A DNA stretch of 13,136 nt from the IMG/VR virus record IMGVR_UViG_2695420602_000002; one strand, written 5' to 3'. Source of the stretch: a virus (lineage: Duplodnaviria > Heunggongvirae > Uroviricota > Caudoviricetes). Shown one piece after another: positions 1 to 13,136 of this stretch. The notes beneath the pieces were generated by a model. It was not told the DNA's origin. It made no database searches and worked only from the letters and a program-made list of their open reading frames with translations. Every line of letters starts with the position of its first letter. Position 1 is the stretch's first letter. The position numbers were made by a program, and so were the translations under genes.

Positions 1-1260
1 ATGAAACTTACCGATCTCACGGTACGAAATGCCAAGCCTGATCAGGTCAACAATAAGATTAAGAAACTGAGCGATGGAAACGGGCTATATCTCGCTGTCT
101 ACCCCAATGGGTCGAAGTACTGGCGCTTTCGTAAAGTGATTAACAGTAAAGAAACAACTCGGGCTTTAGGCATCTACCCGGCCATGACACTGGCAGAGGC
201 CAGAAGTGCCAGAGACTCGTATTTGCTTGAGTTATCCAAAGGGATTGATCCCTTGCACACCATAAAGCCTAAAATAACCTCATTTGAGGAAGTTTCCAGA
301 GAGTGGCATACCAGAAAACGTGGATGGAGTGAACCACACGCTAAAAAAGTCCTCAAAGATTTAGAAAATCATATATTCCCTGAAATAGGCAAAAGAGCAG
401 TTAATGAAATAACAACTCAGGATTTATTAACACCCCTTAGAAAAATGGAGGATAAAGGAATACTGGAAACCGCTTCGCGTATCAAACAACGCATGAATGC
501 GATCATGCGCTATGCTGTACAAAGTGGAATAATTAAATATAACCCAGCACAAGAACTGGATGGCGCTTTAGAAACAAATAAAACAAAACACCGCCCCGCC
601 CTTCCTCTTGAACGCTTACCGGAATTATTAGATAAGATTGAAAATTACCATACTCAGTCACACGGGCGGCTATTAACTCAATTAGCTGTAAGACTTAACC
701 TCTTAATTTTTATTCGCTCCAGTGAACTTCGTTTTGCTCGCTGGAATGAAATAGACCTTGATAAATCTCAGTGGATTATTCCAGCGCAACGAGAAGAAGT
801 TAAAGATGTAAGGTTTTCATACCGTGGTGCAAAAATGAAAACGCCTCATACGGTTCCTCTTGCCACACAAGCAATAGAAACTCTAAAGGCAATAAAGGTA
901 ATTTCAGGTGATGAGATATTTGTTTTCCCCGGCGACCACTATCAATCAAAACCGATGAGTGAGAATACAATAAATAAAGCGTTGCGTAATATGGGATATG
1001 ACACGCAATCAGACGTTTGTGGACATGGTTTCCGCGCTATGGCCTGTGCAGCCCTCACGGAGTCTGGAAAGTGGTCAAGAGAAGCAGTAGAGCGTCAGAT
1101 GAGCCACAAAGAAAGAAACTCCGTCAGGGCTGCATATGTCCATCAAGCCGAACATATGGAAGAACGACGCCTGATGTTGCAATGGTGGGGAGACTATCTT
1201 GAGGCCTGCCAAACAGCTTATATTCCACCTTATAAATTTGAATGGTCTTCGAAAAAATGA
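1..1260 (+). CDS. int: P4-type tyrosine integrase (site-specific recombinase, phage integrase family), 419 aa
   Basis: Full-length ORF from the track. N-terminus (MKLTDLTVRNAKP...DGNGLYL) and C-terminal motifs (GHGFRA, HMEERRLMLQWW) match the P4/CP4-type integrase family as recalled. Position next to a tRNA-type att is typical. Confidence 0.9.
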   Translation: MKLTDLTVRNAKPDQVNNKIKKLSDGNGLYLAVYPNGSKYWRFRKVINSKETTRALGIYPAMTLAEARSARDSYLLELSKGIDPLHTIKPKITSFEEVSREWHTRKRGWSEPHAKKVLKDLENHIFPEIGKRAVNEITTQDLLTPLRKMEDKGILETASRIKQRMNAIMRYAVQSGIIKYNPAQELDGALETNKTKHRPALPLERLPELLDKIENYHTQSHGRLLTQLAVRLNLLIFIRSSELRFARWNEIDLDKSQWIIPAQREEVKDVRFSYRGAKMKTPHTVPLATQAIETLKAIKVISGDEIFVFPGDHYQSKPMSENTINKALRNMGYDTQSDVCGHGFRAMACAALTESGKWSREAVERQMSHKERNSVRAAYVHQAEHMEERRLMLQWWGDYLEACQTAYIPPYKFEWSSKK

Positions 1261-1792: not shown

Positions 1793-2014
1793 ATGTCATT
1801 ACCAACATCATCTAATGAATATAAAACACAGAAACTTATTAGACTTCCAAAGGTTATTGAAATAACTGGAAAGTCAAGAACACGTATTTATGAAGATATG
1901 AAAGCTAACCGCTTCCCTAAAGCAATTAAAACAGGGTCACGTTCAGTCGCCTGGGTTGAACAAGAAATTGCTGAATGGATAGAGGATAAGAAGAAGCAAC
2001 GATTTCAAAACTGA
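1793..2014 (+). CDS. alpA: AlpA-family (prophage CP4-57 regulatory protein-like) HTH transcriptional regulator / excision activator, 73 aa
   Basis: Core LIRLPKVIEITGKSRTRIYEDM...SVAWVEQEIAEWIE closely parallels E. coli AlpA (ILRLPAVIQKTGMARATIYDWL...SVGWIEAEIDEWL, recalled). ATG at 1793 preferred over the GTG at 1784 because AGGTGG lies 5 nt upstream. Confidence 0.88.
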   Translation: MSLPTSSNEYKTQKLIRLPKVIEITGKSRTRIYEDMKANRFPKAIKTGSRSVAWVEQEIAEWIEDKKKQRFQN

Positions 2015-3926: not shown

Positions 3927-6596
3927 ATGAACAGAAAAGATCTACGCCCCGAAATCATAAAACGACTGGTGCATGATTACCAGTTTAAAGAGCAGAACGG
4001 CTATCTGCGCTCAGGTATTTGCCCTGAATGTAACAAGAAAGAACTCTTTACCAGCATGGAAAATCCTTGGGTGCTGCGCTGTGGCCGGGAAAATAATTGC
4101 GGCGCTGATCTGTCGGTAAAATCGCTCTATCCTGAATTATTTAACTCATGGTCAGATCGCTATGAGAGCACGCCTGAGCAGCCTTTTGCCGCTGCGGAAG
4201 CCTATCTGAGAGAAGCCAGAGGGCTGGATACTACCTGCTTAAAGGGCTGCTATACGCAGGAAAGCTACCATAAGGGCGGCATGGGAAGCGCAACGGTTCG
4301 CTTTGCCCTGTCTGATGGTATCTGGTGGGAGCGGATTATCGACAAGCCAGAACGCTTTGATCGAAAGGCTAACTTCCACGGTAAGTACGCCGGTCACTGG
4401 TGGGTTCCGCCAGCGCTGGATCTGGCTAAAGTCAGTTGTATCTGGCTAACTGAGGGGATTTTTGACGCCATTAGCCTTTATCAGAACGGCACCCCTGCCG
4501 TTTCCATTATGACTGCCGGAAACTACCCGGAAGCCGCGCTTAAAGCGCTTGCTGAACAATTCCAGGGCAAAGAAAAGCCGTTTCTTGTCTGGGCGCTGGA
4601 CAATGGGAAAGCAGGGGAAACAGCCATACGTCGCCATGTGGCGCGGAGCCGTGAACAAGGCTGGAAAGCCGTTGCCGCACTTCCTTCACAGGGGAGCAAT
4701 AAAGCTGACTGGAACGATCTCCACCTTACCGGAAAGCTGACCAGACGACACCAGAAAGAGTACCGCTATTACGGCGATCTGTTGCTGGCGGAAAGCGCCC
4801 GAGATAAGGCGCTTCGGATGTTTGAACATAATGAACGCCCTGAGTTTCACTTCGAATACGGGAACTGCGTGTACTGGTTTAAGCTGGACATTGAGCGCCA
4901 TATGAAGGCCGTTGAGCGTATCCTTAACGATAAAAAAGTTAATGATGAACGTGAAGCCAGAAGTATTGCATTGAAAGAGTCTGGAGCAATTAAGGAAATA
5001 GCCAATTGTCACCCCGCACCGCTGTATTTTATGCGTTCAGAAGTTACAGACGAGTCCTGGTATTATTTTCGCATCGCCTTTCCAGGCAATACACCCGCAG
5101 TGAAAGACTCCTTTACCGCGGGGCAGATCTCTTCTGCGTCTGAGTTTAAAAAGCGTCTCCTCCATGTGGCAAAAGGTGCGCTCTATACCGGAACCAGCCA
5201 GCAGCTCGATGGTCTGATTAAAAAGGATCTGCCCCGGATCAAAGAGGTCAGGACGCAGGACTTTATTGGGTATAACAGGGACTGGCGGGCATGGGTATTC
5301 AATAAGCTGGCGATACATAACGGGAAGGTCTACTCCTTGAACAGCGAAGATTACTTTGAGATTGGTGGGATGAATATCAAGACACTGAGCCGATCCCCGT
5401 TAATCAATATCAATTCTGATGATAATTCGCTTTCGTCAGGCTGGGCCGATGATATCTGGACGGCTTTTGGTGAAAATGGCTATGTCGCGCTGGCATTCTG
5501 GCTGGGAACATTCTTCGTTGAACAGATACGCGAACAGCAGGCCAGCTTTCCCTTTCTGGAGATTATCGGTGAACCGGGAACAGGTAAATCCACGCTGATT
5601 GATTTTCTCTGGCGGCTCTGTGGCAGGGACAGCTATGAGGGAATTGACCCTTCAAAGGGTTCTGTTGCGGGCATTTATCGTAACTTCGCCCAGGTCTCAA
5701 ACCTTCCCGTCGTGCTGCTTGAAGGCGATCGCGCCCAAGACACGAAGAAGCTGCGCGGCTTTGACTTCGATGAGCTAAAACCGCTCTACAACGGGCGCGG
5801 ATTACGGGCGATTGGTGTTAAGACCAACAACAATGAAACCAGAGAGCCGCCATTCAGGGGCAGCATTGTCATCGCGCAGAATGCCACCGTTAACGCCTCA
5901 CCTGCGATACTGGAACGTATTATCCATGTGTTTACGGATAAACGCCGTCAGTCATCGCTGACCAGGGCGGCGGCTGAACGCCTTGAGCGTCTGCCGGTCG
6001 ATCAGGTATCTGGTTTTATGATCCGGGCGGTATGCAGGGAAAGCGCAGTATTGTCGATTATTCAGGAGGTGTATGAGGCCGAAAAAATCAGGCTGGAACA
6101 ACACTCTGAAATTCGTCATATCCGAATTGCCAAAAATCATGCCCAGATGATTGCATGTGTAAGGGCGCTGACCTGTGTTCTGGATATTCCCGCAGAACGC
6201 CTCGATCGCACCTGTGAACAGCTTACTGTGATGGCGGTGGAGCGGGTTAAATCGCTGGAAGCGGATATCCCTGTGGTTCGTGAGTTCTGGGATGCCTTTG
6301 ATTATCTGAATAGCCTGGAGCGTTTCGGCGTCAACCATTTTGGGAAAGAGAATCGCGACGAGATCGCCATTAACTTCCCTCACCTGATGCGTATAGCTGC
6401 TATGCAGCGTGTAAATATTCCCCCGGCGAAAGAAATTCAGGATTACCTGAAAAACGGGCGTATGCGGCCGTGTACGGGCCAGAAGACGGTAAGAAGTGAG
6501 GTTTCCAGACTGGCAAATCAGGGGCGTGGAGAGGCTGGCCCGAAAGAGCCTGAGCAGGTGAAATGCTGGATTTTTAAAGTGCCGGCCGCTCAGTAG
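3927..6596 (+). CDS. Bifunctional DNA primase-helicase (P4 alpha-like): N-terminal Zn-ribbon, TOPRIM-like region, C-terminal P-loop NTPase; 889 aa
   Basis: Cys cluster CPEC...RCGRENNCG near the N-terminus. TOPRIM-like IWLTEGIFDAISL and VWALDNGKAGE. Walker A GEPGTGKS and Walker B-like VVLLEGD. RBS AAGGA 8 nt upstream. Confidence 0.82.
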   Translation: MNRKDLRPEIIKRLVHDYQFKEQNGYLRSGICPECNKKELFTSMENPWVLRCGRENNCGADLSVKSLYPELFNSWSDRYESTPEQPFAAAEAYLREARGLDTTCLKGCYTQESYHKGGMGSATVRFALSDGIWWERIIDKPERFDRKANFHGKYAGHWWVPPALDLAKVSCIWLTEGIFDAISLYQNGTPAVSIMTAGNYPEAALKALAEQFQGKEKPFLVWALDNGKAGETAIRRHVARSREQGWKAVAALPSQGSNKADWNDLHLTGKLTRRHQKEYRYYGDLLLAESARDKALRMFEHNERPEFHFEYGNCVYWFKLDIERHMKAVERILNDKKVNDEREARSIALKESGAIKEIANCHPAPLYFMRSEVTDESWYYFRIAFPGNTPAVKDSFTAGQISSASEFKKRLLHVAKGALYTGTSQQLDGLIKKDLPRIKEVRTQDFIGYNRDWRAWVFNKLAIHNGKVYSLNSEDYFEIGGMNIKTLSRSPLININSDDNSLSSGWADDIWTAFGENGYVALAFWLGTFFVEQIREQQASFPFLEIIGEPGTGKSTLIDFLWRLCGRDSYEGIDPSKGSVAGIYRNFAQVSNLPVVLLEGDRAQDTKKLRGFDFDELKPLYNGRGLRAIGVKTNNNETREPPFRGSIVIAQNATVNASPAILERIIHVFTDKRRQSSLTRAAAERLERLPVDQVSGFMIRAVCRESAVLSIIQEVYEAEKIRLEQHSEIRHIRIAKNHAQMIACVRALTCVLDIPAERLDRTCEQLTVMAVERVKSLEADIPVVREFWDAFDYLNSLERFGVNHFGKENRDEIAINFPHLMRIAAMQRVNIPPAKEIQDYLKNGRMRPCTGQKTVRSEVSRLANQGRGEAGPKEPEQVKCWIFKVPAAQ

Positions 6597-6611: not shown

Positions 6612-7592
6612 ATGACCATTAAAAAACGGGCTGACGGGCGTTATGAAGTCGATATTTATGCCAGAGGGCGCAGCGGTAAGCGCTTTCGCAGGATTTTTGA
6701 CAGAAAGCAGGAGGCAGCGCTCTTTGAACGGTATGTTATGGCGAATGCCGATAAAAAAGAGTGGTTGGGCGCCAGCACCGATCGGCGTACTCTCAGCGAG
6801 CTGCTAAACATCTGGTGGCTGCTGTATGGCCGGACGCTGGAGAACGGAAACGCCGAAAAACGACACCTAGATAAAACGATCAGAGCCCTGGGCAACCCGG
6901 CAGTTAACCGGCTGACTAAACGAATCATCGCGCAGCATCGCAGCGAGCGGCTGGATTCAGGGATCAGCACGGCCACCGTCAACCGTGATATATATCGCCT
7001 TTCGGGTATGTTCAGCGCCCTGATAAAACTGGATGAATTCAAGGCTGATAACCCCTGTAAAGGGCTGGAGCCATTGAGGGAGAAACCAGCAGCAATGACC
7101 TACCTTACTAAATCGGAAATCAGTCGATTATTGAATACCCTTACAGGTGACGATCGCCGTGTTGCTCTTTTGTGCCTCAGCACCGGCGCACGCTGGGGAG
7201 AAGGCAGCACACTGCGGGGAGAGCAGATTAACCACGGACGCGTAACTTTTCTTAAAACCAAAAACGGGAAGAGGCGCACGATCCCAATATCGGATGAACT
7301 GGAAAAAGAGATCAAAACCCGCGATTGCGGGCCGCTGTTCAGCGTTGACTATGAAGCCTTTTGCGGGCGGCTTAGGGAGGTTAAGCCGGACCTGCCGCGC
7401 GGGCAGGCTACGCATGTGCTTCGCCATACGTTTGCAAGCTGGTTCATGATGAACGGGGGCAATATTATCGCCTTACAACAAATTCTTGGTCACGCCAGTA
7501 TCCAGCAGACGATGGTTTATGCGCATGTTGCGCCTGACTATCTGCAACACGCCGTTTCACTCAATCCCCTTTCTGGCGGAATCAGCCTCTGA
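6612..7592 (+). CDS. Second tyrosine recombinase / integrase-family protein with an arm-type N-terminal domain, 326 aa
   Basis: C-terminal catalytic signature HVLRHTFAS ... LGHASIQQTMVYAHV (R, H-x-x-R, H, Y). GAGGAA RBS upstream. Starts 16 bp after the primase stop on the same strand. Confidence 0.78.
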   Translation: MTIKKRADGRYEVDIYARGRSGKRFRRIFDRKQEAALFERYVMANADKKEWLGASTDRRTLSELLNIWWLLYGRTLENGNAEKRHLDKTIRALGNPAVNRLTKRIIAQHRSERLDSGISTATVNRDIYRLSGMFSALIKLDEFKADNPCKGLEPLREKPAAMTYLTKSEISRLLNTLTGDDRRVALLCLSTGARWGEGSTLRGEQINHGRVTFLKTKNGKRRTIPISDELEKEIKTRDCGPLFSVDYEAFCGRLREVKPDLPRGQATHVLRHTFASWFMMNGGNIIALQQILGHASIQQTMVYAHVAPDYLQHAVSLNPLSGGISL

Positions 7593-7888: not shown

Positions 7889-8150
7889 GGGTTACAAAAG
7901 TTACAAAGTAAAGATATAAATATATTATATTGATTTATATGTAATTTTCACCAACTTGGAAAAGTTACAACCGGGTTACGATCGGGTTACTCTGTAACCT
8001 TATCTAAAGTTACAACTTAGATATTTAACTGATTGATTTTATTGGGTGTAACTTTAATGGAACCTTTTGTAACCTCACAAAGGTTACAAATTTAATTAAT
8101 ATAAATCATTGAGTTAAGCATATTATTTCACCCCCGTAACCGTTGTAACC
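7889..8150. repeat. Iteron array in both orientations (core GGTTACAA / TTGTAACC) around an AT-rich stretch; putative origin of replication
   Basis: At least nine copies of the GTTAC(A) core. They include tandem GTTACAAA x2 (7891-7907), palindrome GGTTAC-tct-GTAACC (7985-7999), and 11-bp inverted copies GGTTACAAAAG (7890-7900) and CTTTTGTAACC (8064-8074). AT-rich segment at 7905-7950 and a G8 tract at 7872-7879. Confidence 0.5.
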
Positions 8151-9149: not shown

Positions 9150-9887
9150 ATGACACAAAACAACATGCAGGCATTACTCGTGAGTTACCAGCAGCAGAAA
9201 GAGCTATTTGACCGTGCCTATAAGTCTCTTTCAGACGAAGAGAAGGTGCTTGCCAACCTGAGCGAGACAAAGCGAAAAATAGAAGTGGAGTCAAACGCGG
9301 GCCATAGTGCCGGTGACTGGGGGCTTGCGTTGCTCAGGAACGGAGGCGTTGAAAGTGCGGAAACAGATGGTGCGGCACTGTCCGCAGCGCAGGTGATGGT
9401 AAAGCTTCAAAAAATCCAGGAGTTGATTGAATCCCAGAGCCTGACGGTGCTTGATCTACGGATTCAAACCGCAAGCCAGGCACGCCAGACGAAAGAGGCT
9501 TATTTTAAACTTTCGTCAGTGATTGCGGATTCTTTTCTCCAGTCTCTTAAAGACGACCTCAGAGCGCTGGTTGGTGAGCGATTGTCTGTCGTCATTGGGC
9601 TTTATTCTCTGGCAGGATTAAACACCAGTGATGCAGAAAGAATATTATCAGATGAATTTATGAAGTTACTTCGCGTTGACTCCAGAACGGTTGTACGTGA
9701 ATTATTGAGTGATGCTGACAGTAGTCTTTTCAGCGATCCTGTACTGGCATTTTTCCCCGGTGCATTGTCTGGCAGTATTAACCATGCGTTAAATAACAGT
9801 CCTTCGCCAATTCAGGAATCTAAAGCACGCTCTGATATGGATTATAAGAAGAGACTGGCGGCGGGTATTGAGCCATTCAGAAAATAG
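9150..9887 (+). CDS. Hypothetical coiled-coil-rich protein, 245 aa; possibly a Sid/Psu-like or scaffold-like capsid-associated protein (positional inference only)
   Basis: Good ORF with a Q/E/K/L-rich helical composition. Immediately upstream of the capsid-like gene and Ogr. Length similar to P4 Sid (244 aa, recalled), but no sequence match could be verified. Confidence 0.65.
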   Translation: MTQNNMQALLVSYQQQKELFDRAYKSLSDEEKVLANLSETKRKIEVESNAGHSAGDWGLALLRNGGVESAETDGAALSAAQVMVKLQKIQELIESQSLTVLDLRIQTASQARQTKEAYFKLSSVIADSFLQSLKDDLRALVGERLSVVIGLYSLAGLNTSDAERILSDEFMKLLRVDSRTVVRELLSDADSSLFSDPVLAFFPGALSGSINHALNNSPSPIQESKARSDMDYKKRLAAGIEPFRK

Positions 9888-9924: not shown

Positions 9925-10962
9925 ATGAAAAACAGCACCAGAGAAAAATATGATGCATGGTGCTTATTGCAGGCATCACAAAATAAGCTGAACAGTTCAA
10001 AGCTGGATGGGATTTCCTTTTCACTTACACCATCTGCATCGCAAACTATTGTTGATAAGATGCAGGAAAGCGCAGATTTACTTAAACAGATAAATATTCT
10101 GGAAGTGGACGAGCAGGAAGAAGAGTCGATCGGGCTTACATCTGTACCGCTGTCCAGTACGAACAACTCAACGACAGAGGCACGCCAGCCCGTACAAGGT
10201 TGTACAGCAGAGACTGACCGATACCGTTGTGAGCAGGTGAATACTGATACCTATGTTTCTTATGAGAAACTGGATCAGTGGGCGGGCCTTGATAATTTCT
10301 TCGGGCATATGGAGAGCCAGATTTATCGCCGTCAGGCACTGGATGTAATACTGACTGGCATTTATGGCACTCACCATGCGGCTAAATCAGATATTACTGC
10401 TAACCCGTTGCTTCAGGATGTTAATACCGGCTGGTTAGAAAAGTGGCGGCGAAATGCCTCAGCCCGCGTGGTTAATGGTGTATCGGTCAGTCGCCGCAAT
10501 AACGCCAATATTATCGAGTCCAGCGGGGATTACGGTACTATTGACTCTCTGACGATGGAGGCATATCAGGAATTATTAGATCCGTGGCACACCGGGGATT
10601 CAGATCTTGTTGTTATTTGTAATCTCTCATTGATTACAGGAAAGTATTATCCCTTTGTTAATAATCTTGGAGTGACACCAAATAAAGAGTTGCTCGCTTT
10701 AGCATTACAAAATGAGAACCGTCAGATCGGAGGGCTTCCCGTTTGCCCAATTCCGTTCTTTCCTCAAAATGCGATGCTGGTTACTTCGCTTGATAATCTG
10801 TCTTTGTACTGGCAAACAGGAACACACCGCCGCAAAATCTCGGAAGAACCGGAATTTAACCGCGTCTCAACCTATGATTCGTGGAATAACGCCTATGTGG
10901 TCGAAGACTACGGCAAGGGATGCCTGATTGAAGGGATTATCTGGGGTAACGATCAGCGTTAA
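9925..10962 (+). CDS. P2 gpN-family major capsid protein homolog, 345 aa
   Basis: Segments match gpN as recalled from memory: SQTIVDKMQESADLLKQINI (gpN TQTLMNTMQESSDFLTRINI), YRCEQVNTDTYVSYEKLDQWA (gpN YECDQINFDFYIRYKTLDLWA), LLQDVNTGWLEKWR, GDSDLVVI, HRRKISEEPEFNRV...YVVEDYGKGCLIE. The function needs a search to confirm. Confidence 0.6.
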   Translation: MKNSTREKYDAWCLLQASQNKLNSSKLDGISFSLTPSASQTIVDKMQESADLLKQINILEVDEQEEESIGLTSVPLSSTNNSTTEARQPVQGCTAETDRYRCEQVNTDTYVSYEKLDQWAGLDNFFGHMESQIYRRQALDVILTGIYGTHHAAKSDITANPLLQDVNTGWLEKWRRNASARVVNGVSVSRRNNANIIESSGDYGTIDSLTMEAYQELLDPWHTGDSDLVVICNLSLITGKYYPFVNNLGVTPNKELLALALQNENRQIGGLPVCPIPFFPQNAMLVTSLDNLSLYWQTGTHRRKISEEPEFNRVSTYDSWNNAYVVEDYGKGCLIEGIIWGNDQR

Positions 10963-11030
10963 CCCGTCTCCGGTCTGGTTCAGTATGGTATTATTATTGC
11001 GATACTAACCAGACCAGAGGAGAAGCGCAT

Positions 11031-11264
11031 ATGGCTATGCGTTGCCCTCAATGCCATGCAACGGCGAAGACAAGAACCAGCGTTGAACTCAGCGACCTGG
11101 TAAGAAAAAGCTATCATCAGTGCCAGAACCTTAAGTGTGGCCTGACGTTTATCTCTATGACAGAGATTTACTGCACGCTTAACCGTCCCGATTTGCCATC
11201 ACATACCCTTGAAGCCCTTCCACCGGACAAGTTCCCGATCAGCCACCAGGAAAAAACGCTGTAA
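11031..11264 (+). CDS. ogr: Ogr/Delta-family zinc-finger late-gene transcriptional activator, 77 aa
   Basis: C5-x2-C8-x22-C31-x4-C36 spacing with the SYHQCQNLKCGLTF motif (P2 Ogr RYHQCQNVNCSATF, recalled). RBS GAGGAGAAG upstream. Confidence 0.85.
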   Translation: MAMRCPQCHATAKTRTSVELSDLVRKSYHQCQNLKCGLTFISMTEIYCTLNRPDLPSHTLEALPPDKFPISHQEKTL

Positions 11265-11271
11265 ATACCCA

Positions 11272-11300
11272 TGCAGCCCCTATCTATAGGGGTTGCAGTG
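11272..11300 (+). terminator. Hairpin after ogr (GCAGCCCCTAT / ATAGGGGTTGC, one G-U) with a weak U tail
   Basis: 11-12 bp stem starting 8 bp after the ogr stop. The tail GTGCTTTAACA has only a short U-run. Confidence 0.35.
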
Positions 11301-11352
11301 CTTTAACAGCGGTGATAGATATCGCTAATAACAGGCCAGTAGTACGCTATCA

Positions 11353-11374
11353 AACGGGTACAATAACGGGTACA
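11353..11374. repeat. Tandem direct repeat AACGGGTACA x2 (candidate integrase arm-type sites in the attR arm)
   Basis: Two perfect 10-bp copies 12 bp apart, about 60-80 bp from the tRNA-like core. An IHF-like site TATCAATAAGTTA lies at 11403-11415. Confidence 0.3.
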
Positions 11375-11428
11375 TCTAACAGCCAATAAAACTATAATCA
11401 ATAAATATCAATAAGTTAAATTAAAAGA

Positions 11429-11448
11429 CGATTCCTGCAGGGACACCA
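11429..11448 (+). other. attR core: 3'-terminal fragment of a tRNA gene (T-loop/T-stem/acceptor/CCA), most like tRNA-Arg argW
   Basis: CGATTCCTGCAGGGACACCA ends in ACCA with T-stem and acceptor 3' halves but no 5' half, so it is a repeat copy and not a gene. The recalled argW 3' end is GGTTCGATTCCTGCAGGGGACACCA. Confidence 0.55.
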
Positions 11449-11838
11449 GATACCCTTCAAACGAAATCTACCTTCACCCCGTAAAAGATAGGTTTGGCAG
11501 CACACTTGCCTTATATCTACTCATTTTTACTGCAACAGGTTGAAATCTCAGCACTGTCAGAAAGCGCTGATGACTAAACAGCCCTGGGCCGGGCGATGTA
11601 ACCATCACACAGAATCCTGATAGCGAAATATGGCGTGACTCGATACTTCACTCCGCAATGCATTCCTTGATGAATTCGCAGGACCGTGATACACGGGACA
11701 GGTCGCTGAATGACGACAATGTCCTGGAAATCAGCGAACCGCGCATCTGAAGTACATTTGAGCGACTGTACCAGAACATGAATGAGGCGTTTAGATTAGG
11801 TGATTATTAGCAGGGCTAAGCACTTTAGTATTATTATT

Positions 11839-11877
11839 TTCCGGTTGAGGGATAGGGAGATATCGACAACAACCGGA
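11839..11877 (-). terminator. 11-bp perfect inverted repeat (TTTTCCGGTTG ... CAACCGGAAAA) just downstream of cscB; candidate terminator or protein-binding site
   Basis: Perfect IR with a 17-nt spacer, 12 bp beyond the cscB stop, followed on the minus strand by an AU-rich tail. Confidence 0.3.
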
Positions 11878-11888
11878 AAAGTTTACGT

Positions 11889-13136
11889 CTATATTGCTGA
11901 AGGTACAGGCGTTTCCATAACTATTTGCTCGCGTTTTTTACTCAGGAAGAAAATGCCAAATAGCAACATCAGGCAGACAATACCCGAAATTGCGAAGAAA
12001 ACTGTCTGGTAGCCTGCGTGGTCAAAGAGTATCCCAGTCGGCGTTGAAAGCAGCACAATCCCAAGCGAACTGGCAATTTGAAAACCAATCAGAAAGATCG
12101 TCGACGACAGGCGCTTATCAAAATTTGCCACGCTGTATTTGAAGACGGATATGACACAAAGTGGAACCTCAATGGCATGTAACAGCTTCACTAATGAAAT
12201 AATCCAGGGGTTAACGAACAGCGCGCAGGAAAGGATACGCAACGCCATAATCACAACACCGATAAGTAATGCATTTTTTGGCCCTACCCGATTCACAAAG
12301 AAAGGAATAATCGCCATGCATAGCGCTTCGAGTACCACCTGGAATGAGTTGAGATAACCATACAGGCGCGTTCCTACATCGTGTGATTCGAATAAACCTG
12401 CATAAAAGACAGGAAAAAGTTGTTGATCAAAAATGTTATAGAAAGACCACGTCCCCACAATAAATATGACGAAAACCCAGAAGTTTCGATCCTTGAAAAC
12501 TGCGATAAAATCCTCTTTTTTTACCCCTCCCGCATCCGCCGCTACGCACTGGTGATCCTTATCTTTAAAACACATGTTGATCATCATAAATACAGCGCCA
12601 AATAGCGAGACCAACCAGAAGTTGATATGGGGACTGATACTAAAAAATATGCCGGCAAAGAACGCGCCAATAGCATAGCCAAAAGATCCCCAGGCGCGCG
12701 CTGTTCCATATTCGAAATGAAAATTTCGCGCCATTTTTTCGGTGAAACTGTCAAGCAAACCGCATCCCGCCAGATACCCCAGGCCAAAAAAGAGCGCCCC
12801 CAGAATTAGACCTACAGAAAAATTGCTTTGCAGTAACGGTTCATAAACGTAAATCATAAACGGTCCGGTCAAGACCAGGATGAAACTCATACACCAGATG
12901 AGCGGATTCTTCAGACCGAGTTTATCCTGAACGATGCCGTAGAACATCATAAATAGAATGCTGGTAAACTGGTTGACCGAATAAAGTGTACCTAATTCCG
13001 TCCCTGTCAACCCTAGATGTCCTTTCAGCCAAATAGCGTATAACGACCACCACAGCGACCAGGAAATAAAAAAGAGAAATGAGTAACTGGATGCAAAACG
13101 ATAGTACGCATTTCTGAATGGAATATTCAGTGCCAT
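11889..13136 (-). CDS. cscB: Sucrose:H+ symporter (LacY-family MFS oligosaccharide permease), 415 aa
   Basis: Full ORF whose start is the last base of the window. The sequence (MALNIPFRNAYYRFASSYSFLFF...) matches E. coli CscB as recalled and shows LacY-family motifs and multiple hydrophobic spans. Confidence 0.85.
   Translation of the reverse strand: MALNIPFRNAYYRFASSYSFLFFISWSLWWSLYAIWLKGHLGLTGTELGTLYSVNQFTSILFMMFYGIVQDKLGLKNPLIWCMSFILVLTGPFMIYVYEPLLQSNFSVGLILGALFFGLGYLAGCGLLDSFTEKMARNFHFEYGTARAWGSFGYAIGAFFAGIFFSISPHINFWLVSLFGAVFMMINMCFKDKDHQCVAADAGGVKKEDFIAVFKDRNFWVFVIFIVGTWSFYNIFDQQLFPVFYAGLFESHDVGTRLYGYLNSFQVVLEALCMAIIPFFVNRVGPKNALLIGVVIMALRILSCALFVNPWIISLVKLLHAIEVPLCVISVFKYSVANFDKRLSSTIFLIGFQIASSLGIVLLSTPTGILFDHAGYQTVFFAISGIVCLMLLFGIFFLSKKREQIVMETPVPSAI

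Follow-up and report, generated by a model that had tools for sequence, protein, structure and literature searches.

The int-distal attachment junction of a probable P4-related satellite island at argW, with an arm-site and IHF-like layout shared across integrase lineages

Does the stretch from 11340 to 11448, which ends in the 3′ part of a tRNA, mark the end of an integrated element, and if so, what kind of element is it and where did it integrate? The window analyzed here is the whole 13,136-nt stretch of viral DNA recorded as IMGVR_UViG_2695420602_000002. A sequence-only reading of it had proposed an attR architecture made of tandem repeats, an IHF-like site and a tRNA fragment. From comparison with other genomes, we consider it very likely that 11340-11448 represents attR, in which the P arm and core form the int-distal half of the attachment site, and that the element is an 11.6-kb P4-related satellite island inserted at the 3′ end of argW. 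The argument starts with the core of the junction, which is the following feature.

11429-11448, plus strand: attR core, the displaced argW 3′ end CGATTCCTGCAGGGACACCA, corresponding to tRNA positions 56-76 with the G67-G70 run one G short

ARAGORN called no tRNA in the window and 11429-11448 is thus a fragment without a 5′ half. Aligned with the last 21 nt of tRNA-Arg(CCT), CGATTCCTGCAGGGACACCA matches apart from one missing G, since the argW 3′ end is CGATTCCTGCAGGGGACACCA (21 nt, GGGG) and the window core is one G shorter (GGG). The proposal that this is the 3′ part of a tRNA lacking its 5′ half, to be checked by alignment with the upstream tRNA, holds for the fragment and for the match, but not for an exact copy of the 3′ end, which is one G short. 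Among 5,426 complete E. coli genomes, only KCJ3K291 has the integrase of the window, and its island and that of the window differ by 1 base in 11,428. In that genome tRNA-Arg(CCT), which is argW, lies on the same strand as int and ends 178 bp 5′ of the int ATG, the start of int being position 1 of the window. The same attL, with the tRNA end 178 bp 5′ of int, was found in nine further assemblies with an identical integrase (10 of 10 copies read); the window itself contains attR only, and attL was read in these other assemblies of the same island rather than in the window's own strain. The intact tRNA-Arg(CCT) in all ten island copies bears out the earlier guess of an argW-like target.

The tRNA 3′ end is repeated directly at both ends of the island, with an intact tRNA on one side and a fragment lacking its 5′ part on the other, and the integrase gene (window 1-1260) adjoins one of the two junctions. 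In KCJ3K291, the last 21 nt of argW, CGATTCCTGCAGGGGACgCCA, recur at the far end of the island as CGATTCCTGCAGGGGACACCA; the 21-nt block CGATTCCTGCAGGGGAC(A/G)CCA stands at L004:13802, within tRNA-Arg(CCT), and again at L004:25429. The unoccupied site can also be found. In 1,415 complete E. coli genomes argW is directly joined to the flank that starts at 11449 (query, a synthetic argW plus window 11449 onward; coverage threshold ≥80%), and this synthetic empty site is 100% identical over 501 nt in several genomes. In strains with different islands at the argW locus, identity to the window starts exactly at the core, which fixes the right boundary at 11428/11429-11448. The sequence-only reading had set the right boundary of the island by the tRNA fragment and had proposed that the empty site be looked for in related strains; chromosomal identity does begin at the core, and island-free strains have argW abutting the flank. 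With the right end of this P4-related satellite at argW fixed, and with the arm motif and the 11-nt crossover interval given below, annotation of the island and the design of PCR assays for excision and attP become easier. The core-to-core distance, L004:13802-25449 (window -198 to 11449), is 11,627 bp, the P4 genome being 11,624 bp, and this unit length is consistent with packaging into P4-sized capsids.

The annotated features of the island and its chromosomal flank are listed below.

1-1260, plus strand: P4-family tyrosine integrase (PF13356 at residues 3-86, E 1.7e-22; PF22022; PF00589), predicted to bind arm sites and core
1793-2014, plus strand: AlpA/Vis-like small HTH protein (PF05930 Phage_AlpA, E 8e-19), candidate excision directionality factor
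2232-2309 and 2360-2447: isrK RNA and C4/CI antisense RNA (Rfam, 57 bits and 79 bits)
3927-6596: Toprim primase
6612-7592: second tyrosine recombinase (326 aa; PF24624 Int_N and PF00589), directly after the primase gene
9150-9887: 245-aa protein, with no match in Pfam or PHROG
9925-10962: full-length P2-family major capsid homologue (PF05125, E 6e-99; phrog_70)
11031-11264: Ogr/Delta zinc-finger activator
11449-13136: chromosomal flank, csc sucrose locus, with a cscB-type MFS transporter at 11889-13136 on the minus strand

The integrase has the three domains Arm-DNA-bind_3, Phage_int_M and catalytic. Much of the P4-like gene set is present (int, alpA, Toprim primase, Ogr/Delta and C4 RNA), together with a P2-family capsid gene; no match to Psu or Sid was found in the island. 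The capsid gene is placed between the gene for the 245-aa protein and that for the Ogr/Delta activator, and similar genes occur in the argW islands of PEC240 and A5. A short literature search found no description of capsid-encoding P4-like satellites. The PEC240 island also has a recombinase in the same place as the second one here, after the primase gene. The isrK and C4/CI RNAs, a P4-type RNA immunity module, sit within a region annotated elsewhere as an "Icd-like" ORF, and at Rfam gathering thresholds they are the sole hits (2232-2447), with none in 11340-11448. From P4 Vis and KplE1 TorI (PMC2951348), we infer a role in excision for the AlpA/Vis-like protein. To the right of the island, the flank from 11449 onward is 95-99% identical in 2,654 E. 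coli genomes, whichever island stands to its left.

Two other parts of the intergenic DNA were considered. A scan of 11000-11950 for promoters and terminators gave chance-level matches, and no terminator was called at the imperfect hairpin (11272-11297) that follows the ogr-like gene. Further upstream, GGTTACA/GTAAC repeats in both orientations cluster at 7890-8150 (5 of the 6 matches in the window, 1.27 expected) around a perfect IHF consensus at 8026-8038 on the minus strand, within a stretch of about 1.5 kb that has no convincing ORF. From its sequence, 7890-8150 resembles an origin of the iteron type or a cis-acting replication region, in the manner of P4 ori/crr.

Upstream of the core, the P arm carries two copies of AACGGGTACA, which were annotated as follows.

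11353-11364, plus strand: putative arm-type integrase site P1, AACGGGTACA plus AT, a 12-bp unit (perfect repeat, position matching relatives)
11365-11376, plus strand: putative arm-type integrase site P2, AACGGGTACA plus TC, a 12-bp unit (second perfect copy)

The two perfect 10-bp direct repeats noticed earlier are where they were said to be, at 11353-11362 and 11365-11374, 12 bp from start to start with a 2-bp spacer (AT). The 10-bp match is indeed perfect, although the better unit is a 12-bp period, as annotated in P4. Close direct repeats of this kind (≥10 nt, ≤30 bp apart) are rare in the 13-kb window, where the AACGGGTACA pair is one of only two. Could the repeats and the IHF match described below nevertheless have arisen by chance in an A+T-rich intergenic tail, leaving the tRNA fragment as the only meaningful element? 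Base composition gives this explanation some room, since the arm is 72% A+T and AACGGGTACA with 1 mismatch allowed reaches 2 matches in 26 of 200 window-wide shuffles. Against it, a perfect repeat of ≥10 nt with a period of 10-14 arose in only 0.15% of shuffles of the 100-bp arm. The wider motif CGGGTAYA occurs 8 times in the 29.7-kb KCJ3K291 locus where 0.86 are expected, and 5 of the 8 fall in the att arms: attR has two, both direct, and the DNA just 5′ of int, outside the window, has another direct pair and an inverted copy.

The same arrangement is found in islands with other motifs, as the positions of the copies in five lineages indicate.

Window island: attR copies 79 and 67 bp before tRNA position 62; attL copies at +117, +129 and +154 (inverted) after the core end; motif GGGTAYA
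PEC240: attR copies 78 and 67 bp before tRNA position 62; attL copies at +117, +129 and +154 (inverted); motif GGGTAYR
A5: attR copies 82 and 70 bp before tRNA position 62; attL copies at +115, +127 and +154 (inverted); motif GYGTATA
O26 island: attR copies 81 and 69 bp before tRNA position 62; attL copies at +127, +139 and +167 (inverted); motif GGGGCM
P4: copies 75 and 63 bp before the core start, and at +115, +127 and +155 (inverted); motif GGGGGCA; annotated attP arm repeats

Repeat number and orientation are thus common to five lineages with similar spacing and different motifs, which again speaks against chance. The GGGTACA core of P1 starts 79 bp before tRNA position 62, its equivalent 78-82 bp before that position in PEC240, A5 and O26 and 75 bp before the core start in P4; that of P2 starts at 67 bp, where the other argW lineages have 67-70 bp and P4 has 63 bp. 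The arm motif in KplE1-type junctions is GGGTAAAA, presumably the IntS arm site. The P4 attP layout (2+3 arm sites, one IHF site and an int promoter in the arm) appears to be kept at near base-pair spacing. That a near-identical att layout spans divergent integrases using different motifs and tRNAs adds little conceptually; the integrase lineage with the CGGGTAYA motif is without description in the literature searched, while the architecture itself is well known. As a separate observation, a TTCGAT/GTTCGAT element just 5′ of int separates the inverted arm site from the second direct one in the window-type island, PEC240, A5 and P4 (L004:13961-13967, L005:3533-3539, L006:5487-5493 and L008:878-883), the O26 counterpart being GGTCAAT; it might mark where the int 5′ UTR begins or serve as a site for another protein.

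Between the arm repeats and the core lies the third element of the junction.

11406-11418, plus strand: IHF-consensus element (H2-like), TATCAATAAGTTA, a perfect match to WATCAANNNNTTR

The IHF-consensus match reported in the sequence-only reading is therefore present and perfect. Matches to WATCAANNNNTTR number 3 in the window against 0.82 expected. In shuffles of the spacer, which is 81% A+T, a perfect match arose in 1.2%, and one with ≤1 mismatch in 20%, the latter being the remaining point in favor of chance. The match is suggestive when taken alone and gains its weight from positional conservation. The window, PEC240, A5, O26 and the KplE1-type attR all have a copy with 0-1 mismatch, in each case on the same strand and 29-30 bp ahead of tRNA position 62. 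The P4 copy lies 24 bp before the core start, and since the core of P4 begins earlier by 5 nt in tRNA numbering, its position is the same as in the other lineages. The spacer outside the element has diverged between islands. This conserved position in six lineages, P4 attP included, supports the earlier reading of an IHF site, and 11406-11418 is a probable one, equivalent to lambda H2. The remaining two IHF-consensus matches in the window, that at 8026 and one at 1357 in the A+T-rich spacer after int, were considered as att remnants and rejected, neither having a tRNA-like core. With an IHF-like element fixed in position in six lineages and repeats of the same number, orientation and spacing in five, the comparative data effectively refute chance, which we regard as barely credible as an account of the arm.

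Which protein would occupy the repeats is a closer question. The tandem AACGGGTACA copies might be sites of the AlpA/Vis-like directionality factor rather than of the integrase, in the manner of lambda Xis X1/X2 in the P arm. Excisionase sites are often tandem direct repeats spaced by about one turn of the helix, and the lambda Xis sites lie in the int-distal arm. In addition, the AlpA proteins of the window and PEC240 are 64% identical and the motif is common to both islands, as are integrase N-domains (residues 1-88) that are 81% identical, so this pair alone cannot separate Int sites from those of a directionality factor. Other comparisons favor the integrase. The motif is present in each arm, with one inverted copy located at the int ATG, which is the pattern of the annotated P4 arm repeats. 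The integrases of O26 and P4 are 67% identical over residues 1-88 and 40% elsewhere, and they have different tRNA targets and a GGGGCA-type motif in common; across the six lineages compared, the arm motif tracks the predicted N-terminal arm-binding domain of Int. Finally, in KplE1, TorI binds five sites in attL, whereas the sites over the int -10 box are IntS arm sites (PMC2951348, PMC3509656). Binding of the repeats by a directionality factor is thus quite improbable. Repeat layout, motif enrichment, the P4 match, the N-domain covariation and the KplE1 literature jointly favor integrase arm sites over excisionase sites, iterons and chance, and the tandem AACGGGTACA copies are best read as arm-type integrase sites, a reading that the sequence-only note had already offered and that P4 attP and four other lineages now support.

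Two island-specific markers narrow down where in the core the strands would be exchanged.

11435-11444, plus strand: inferred strand-exchange interval CTGCAGGGAC, tRNA positions 62-72

At the discriminator position 73, attL has the island-derived G and attR the host-derived A (10 of 10 copies each), so position 73 lies to the right of the exchange. The island-specific T of PEC240 at tRNA position 61 stays at attR, which places position 61 to the left. Provided that the PEC240 integrase (77% identical) cuts at the same positions, exchange would occur within CTGCAGGGGAC (tRNA 62-72; window 11435-11444), an 11-nt interval that falls within the 16-nt KplE1 core CTGCAGGGGACACCAT (PMC2951348). A side effect of this geometry concerns the tRNA. 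The island supplies an argW 3′ end with G instead of A at position 73 (L004:13818 and the same position in L018-L026; 10 of 10 copies), so that every lysogen expresses an A73G tRNA-Arg(CCU), which ARAGORN still calls as tRNA-Arg.

The missing G of the window core belongs to a polymorphism. In the G-run at attR (window 11441-11443; L009-L017, ~1905-1925), GGG is found in 6 of 10 island copies and GGGG in the other 4. The GGG form occurs next to cscB, some dsdC and one third flank, and with three island haplotypes; the GGG of the window is not a sequencing artefact. Every attL read is GGGG (L004:13802-13822 included), even on the same scaffold as a GGG attR (L009/L018), and the three other island types examined at the argW locus have GGGG at attR. 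In the window strain, attL and attR probably differ by 1 nt within the exchange interval, and if the G-run is in the overlap, this mismatch may lower excision. A tentative and rather doubtful explanation is that GGG/GGGG marks the integrase overlap: an attP allele one G shorter, with an overlap of about AGGGGAC (tRNA 66-72), would recombine with the 1-nt heterology tolerated, the heteroduplex would segregate, and lysogens with argW-GGG would be lost, their tRNA being broken. If true, the polymorphism would be a natural in vivo map of a P4-family crossover site, with tRNA function filtering the recombination products. Recurrent deletions that lock the island in place are a possible alternative cause.

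Taken further, this alternative would make the whole junction a decayed scar, in which the loss of 1 nt from the core G-run locked the island and the repeats and IHF match persist as relics. It accords with the GGG of the window core against the GGGG of argW at attL in all copies read, with the position of the G-run inside the inferred exchange interval, and with the negative search for an excised form, as a free attP junction (P arm, core and P′ arm, with either G-run length) had no match in the viral or metagenome contigs searched. The conservation of the island argues in the opposite direction. Ten copies, found in at least 5 right-hand contexts and in hosts of more than one genus, have a 100% conserved arm, implying recent mobility. 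The int gene is intact, and a copy in another strain differs from the island by 1 base in 11,428. The occurrence of GGG with three haplotypes and three flanks means that GGG copies seem to move or to arise repeatedly. We therefore hold a decayed scar to be unlikely and keep to the attR of an island that has recently been mobile.

Elements at argW are arranged in tandem, with cores in common. In KCJ3K291, the attR core of the island is also the attL core of an IntS (KplE1-type) element (L004:25429-25620), and in O26:H11 11368 a large Ag43 island has its degraded integrase directly next to the torI end of a lambdoid prophage (L007:22770-23060). One island copy lies beside a T6SS gene (ImpA_N/VasL; L013:1900-2000), where the tRNA-like block lacks the final CA and reads GGGGACAC|TTTG at its end; the copy may occupy a secondary site, or the junction in this host may differ. 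The unoccupied form of this T6SS-flanked copy had no match in E. coli genomes, and its host is accordingly not E. coli.

How would such a junction work? The comparisons above show where the junction lies, which tRNA is the target, that the site is empty in other strains, how the repeats are laid out and that they covary with the N-domain. P4, KplE1 and lambda suggest a mechanism to go with these observations, in which the binding of proteins, the bending of the DNA, the precise points of cleavage and autoregulation are predictions from those systems. The integrase would be heterobivalent, its catalytic domain acting on the core within CTGCAGGGGAC and its N-terminal domain holding the two tandem sites at 11353-11376 as well as the direct pair and the single inverted copy of the other arm. 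IHF at 11406-11418 would bend the spacer of about 50 bp and so allow one integrase to bridge an arm site and the core. Excision would then be recombination of attR with attL, probably aided by the AlpA/Vis-like protein, and would restore argW and free a circle of 11,627 bp. In the island of the window, the int-proximal direct copies overlap a TTGTCG-16-TATAAT promoter, and through these other-arm sites the integrase may repress its own gene.

Among known systems, P4 (leuX; X51522) is the closest in layout. Its integrase is 52% identical to that of the window with the same three domains, and its record X51522 has features named "attP arm sequence repeat", an annotation that follows Pierson and Kahn 1987. 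In both, the core is about 20 nt long and begins 20-21 nt short of the tRNA 3′ end; an IHF-like element precedes it by about 10 bp, and a tandem pair of 12-bp arm repeats stops about 53 bp ahead of it. On the int side, each has a second tandem pair and one inverted copy, lying before or over the int ATG and with TTCGAT between them. They also share the C4/CI immunity RNA, the Toprim primase, the Ogr/Delta-type activator and nearly the same unit length (11,624 vs 11,627 bp). P4 differs in its target and motif (leuX and GGGGGCA, against argW and CGGGTAYA for the window island) and is without the P2-family capsid gene and the second recombinase that the window island has.

KplE1 (CPS-53), HK620 and Sf6 use the same tRNA, argW, and the same core region CTGCAGGGGACACCAT as the window island. 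In KplE1 as here, int is transcribed away from the tRNA, its promoter is embedded in attL and arm sites lie over the -10 box. The KplE1-type attR has a tandem pair of GGGTAAAAT copies with a period of 12 bp, as well as an IHF-like element that precedes tRNA position 62 by 30 bp. IntS, however, is only 31-42% identical to the integrase of the window and its motif differs, and the directionality factor TorI is encoded at the far end of the KplE1 prophage, while the AlpA-like gene of the window island adjoins int. At argW, KplE1 needs IntS, IHF and TorI, and IHF is required in vitro for excision (PMC2951348). For P4, the part of that paper that cites Piazzolla et al. 2006 states that Int represses its own gene via DNA binding (PMC2951348).

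The likeness to lambda is one of overall plan. Lambda attP is laid out as P1, P2 / H1, H2 / core / H′, P′1-P′3. In common with the window island, for which the protein binding is predicted, it is served by a heterobivalent integrase, and both have five arm-type sites split 2+3 and an IHF site beside the core, with a tandem arm pair in the int-distal arm, which becomes attR. The lambda sites are without sequence relationship to those described here and differ in spacing and orientation, and the target of the window island is a tRNA 3′ end. In the regulation of int, the window island would follow the pattern of KplE1 and P4 rather than that of lambda.
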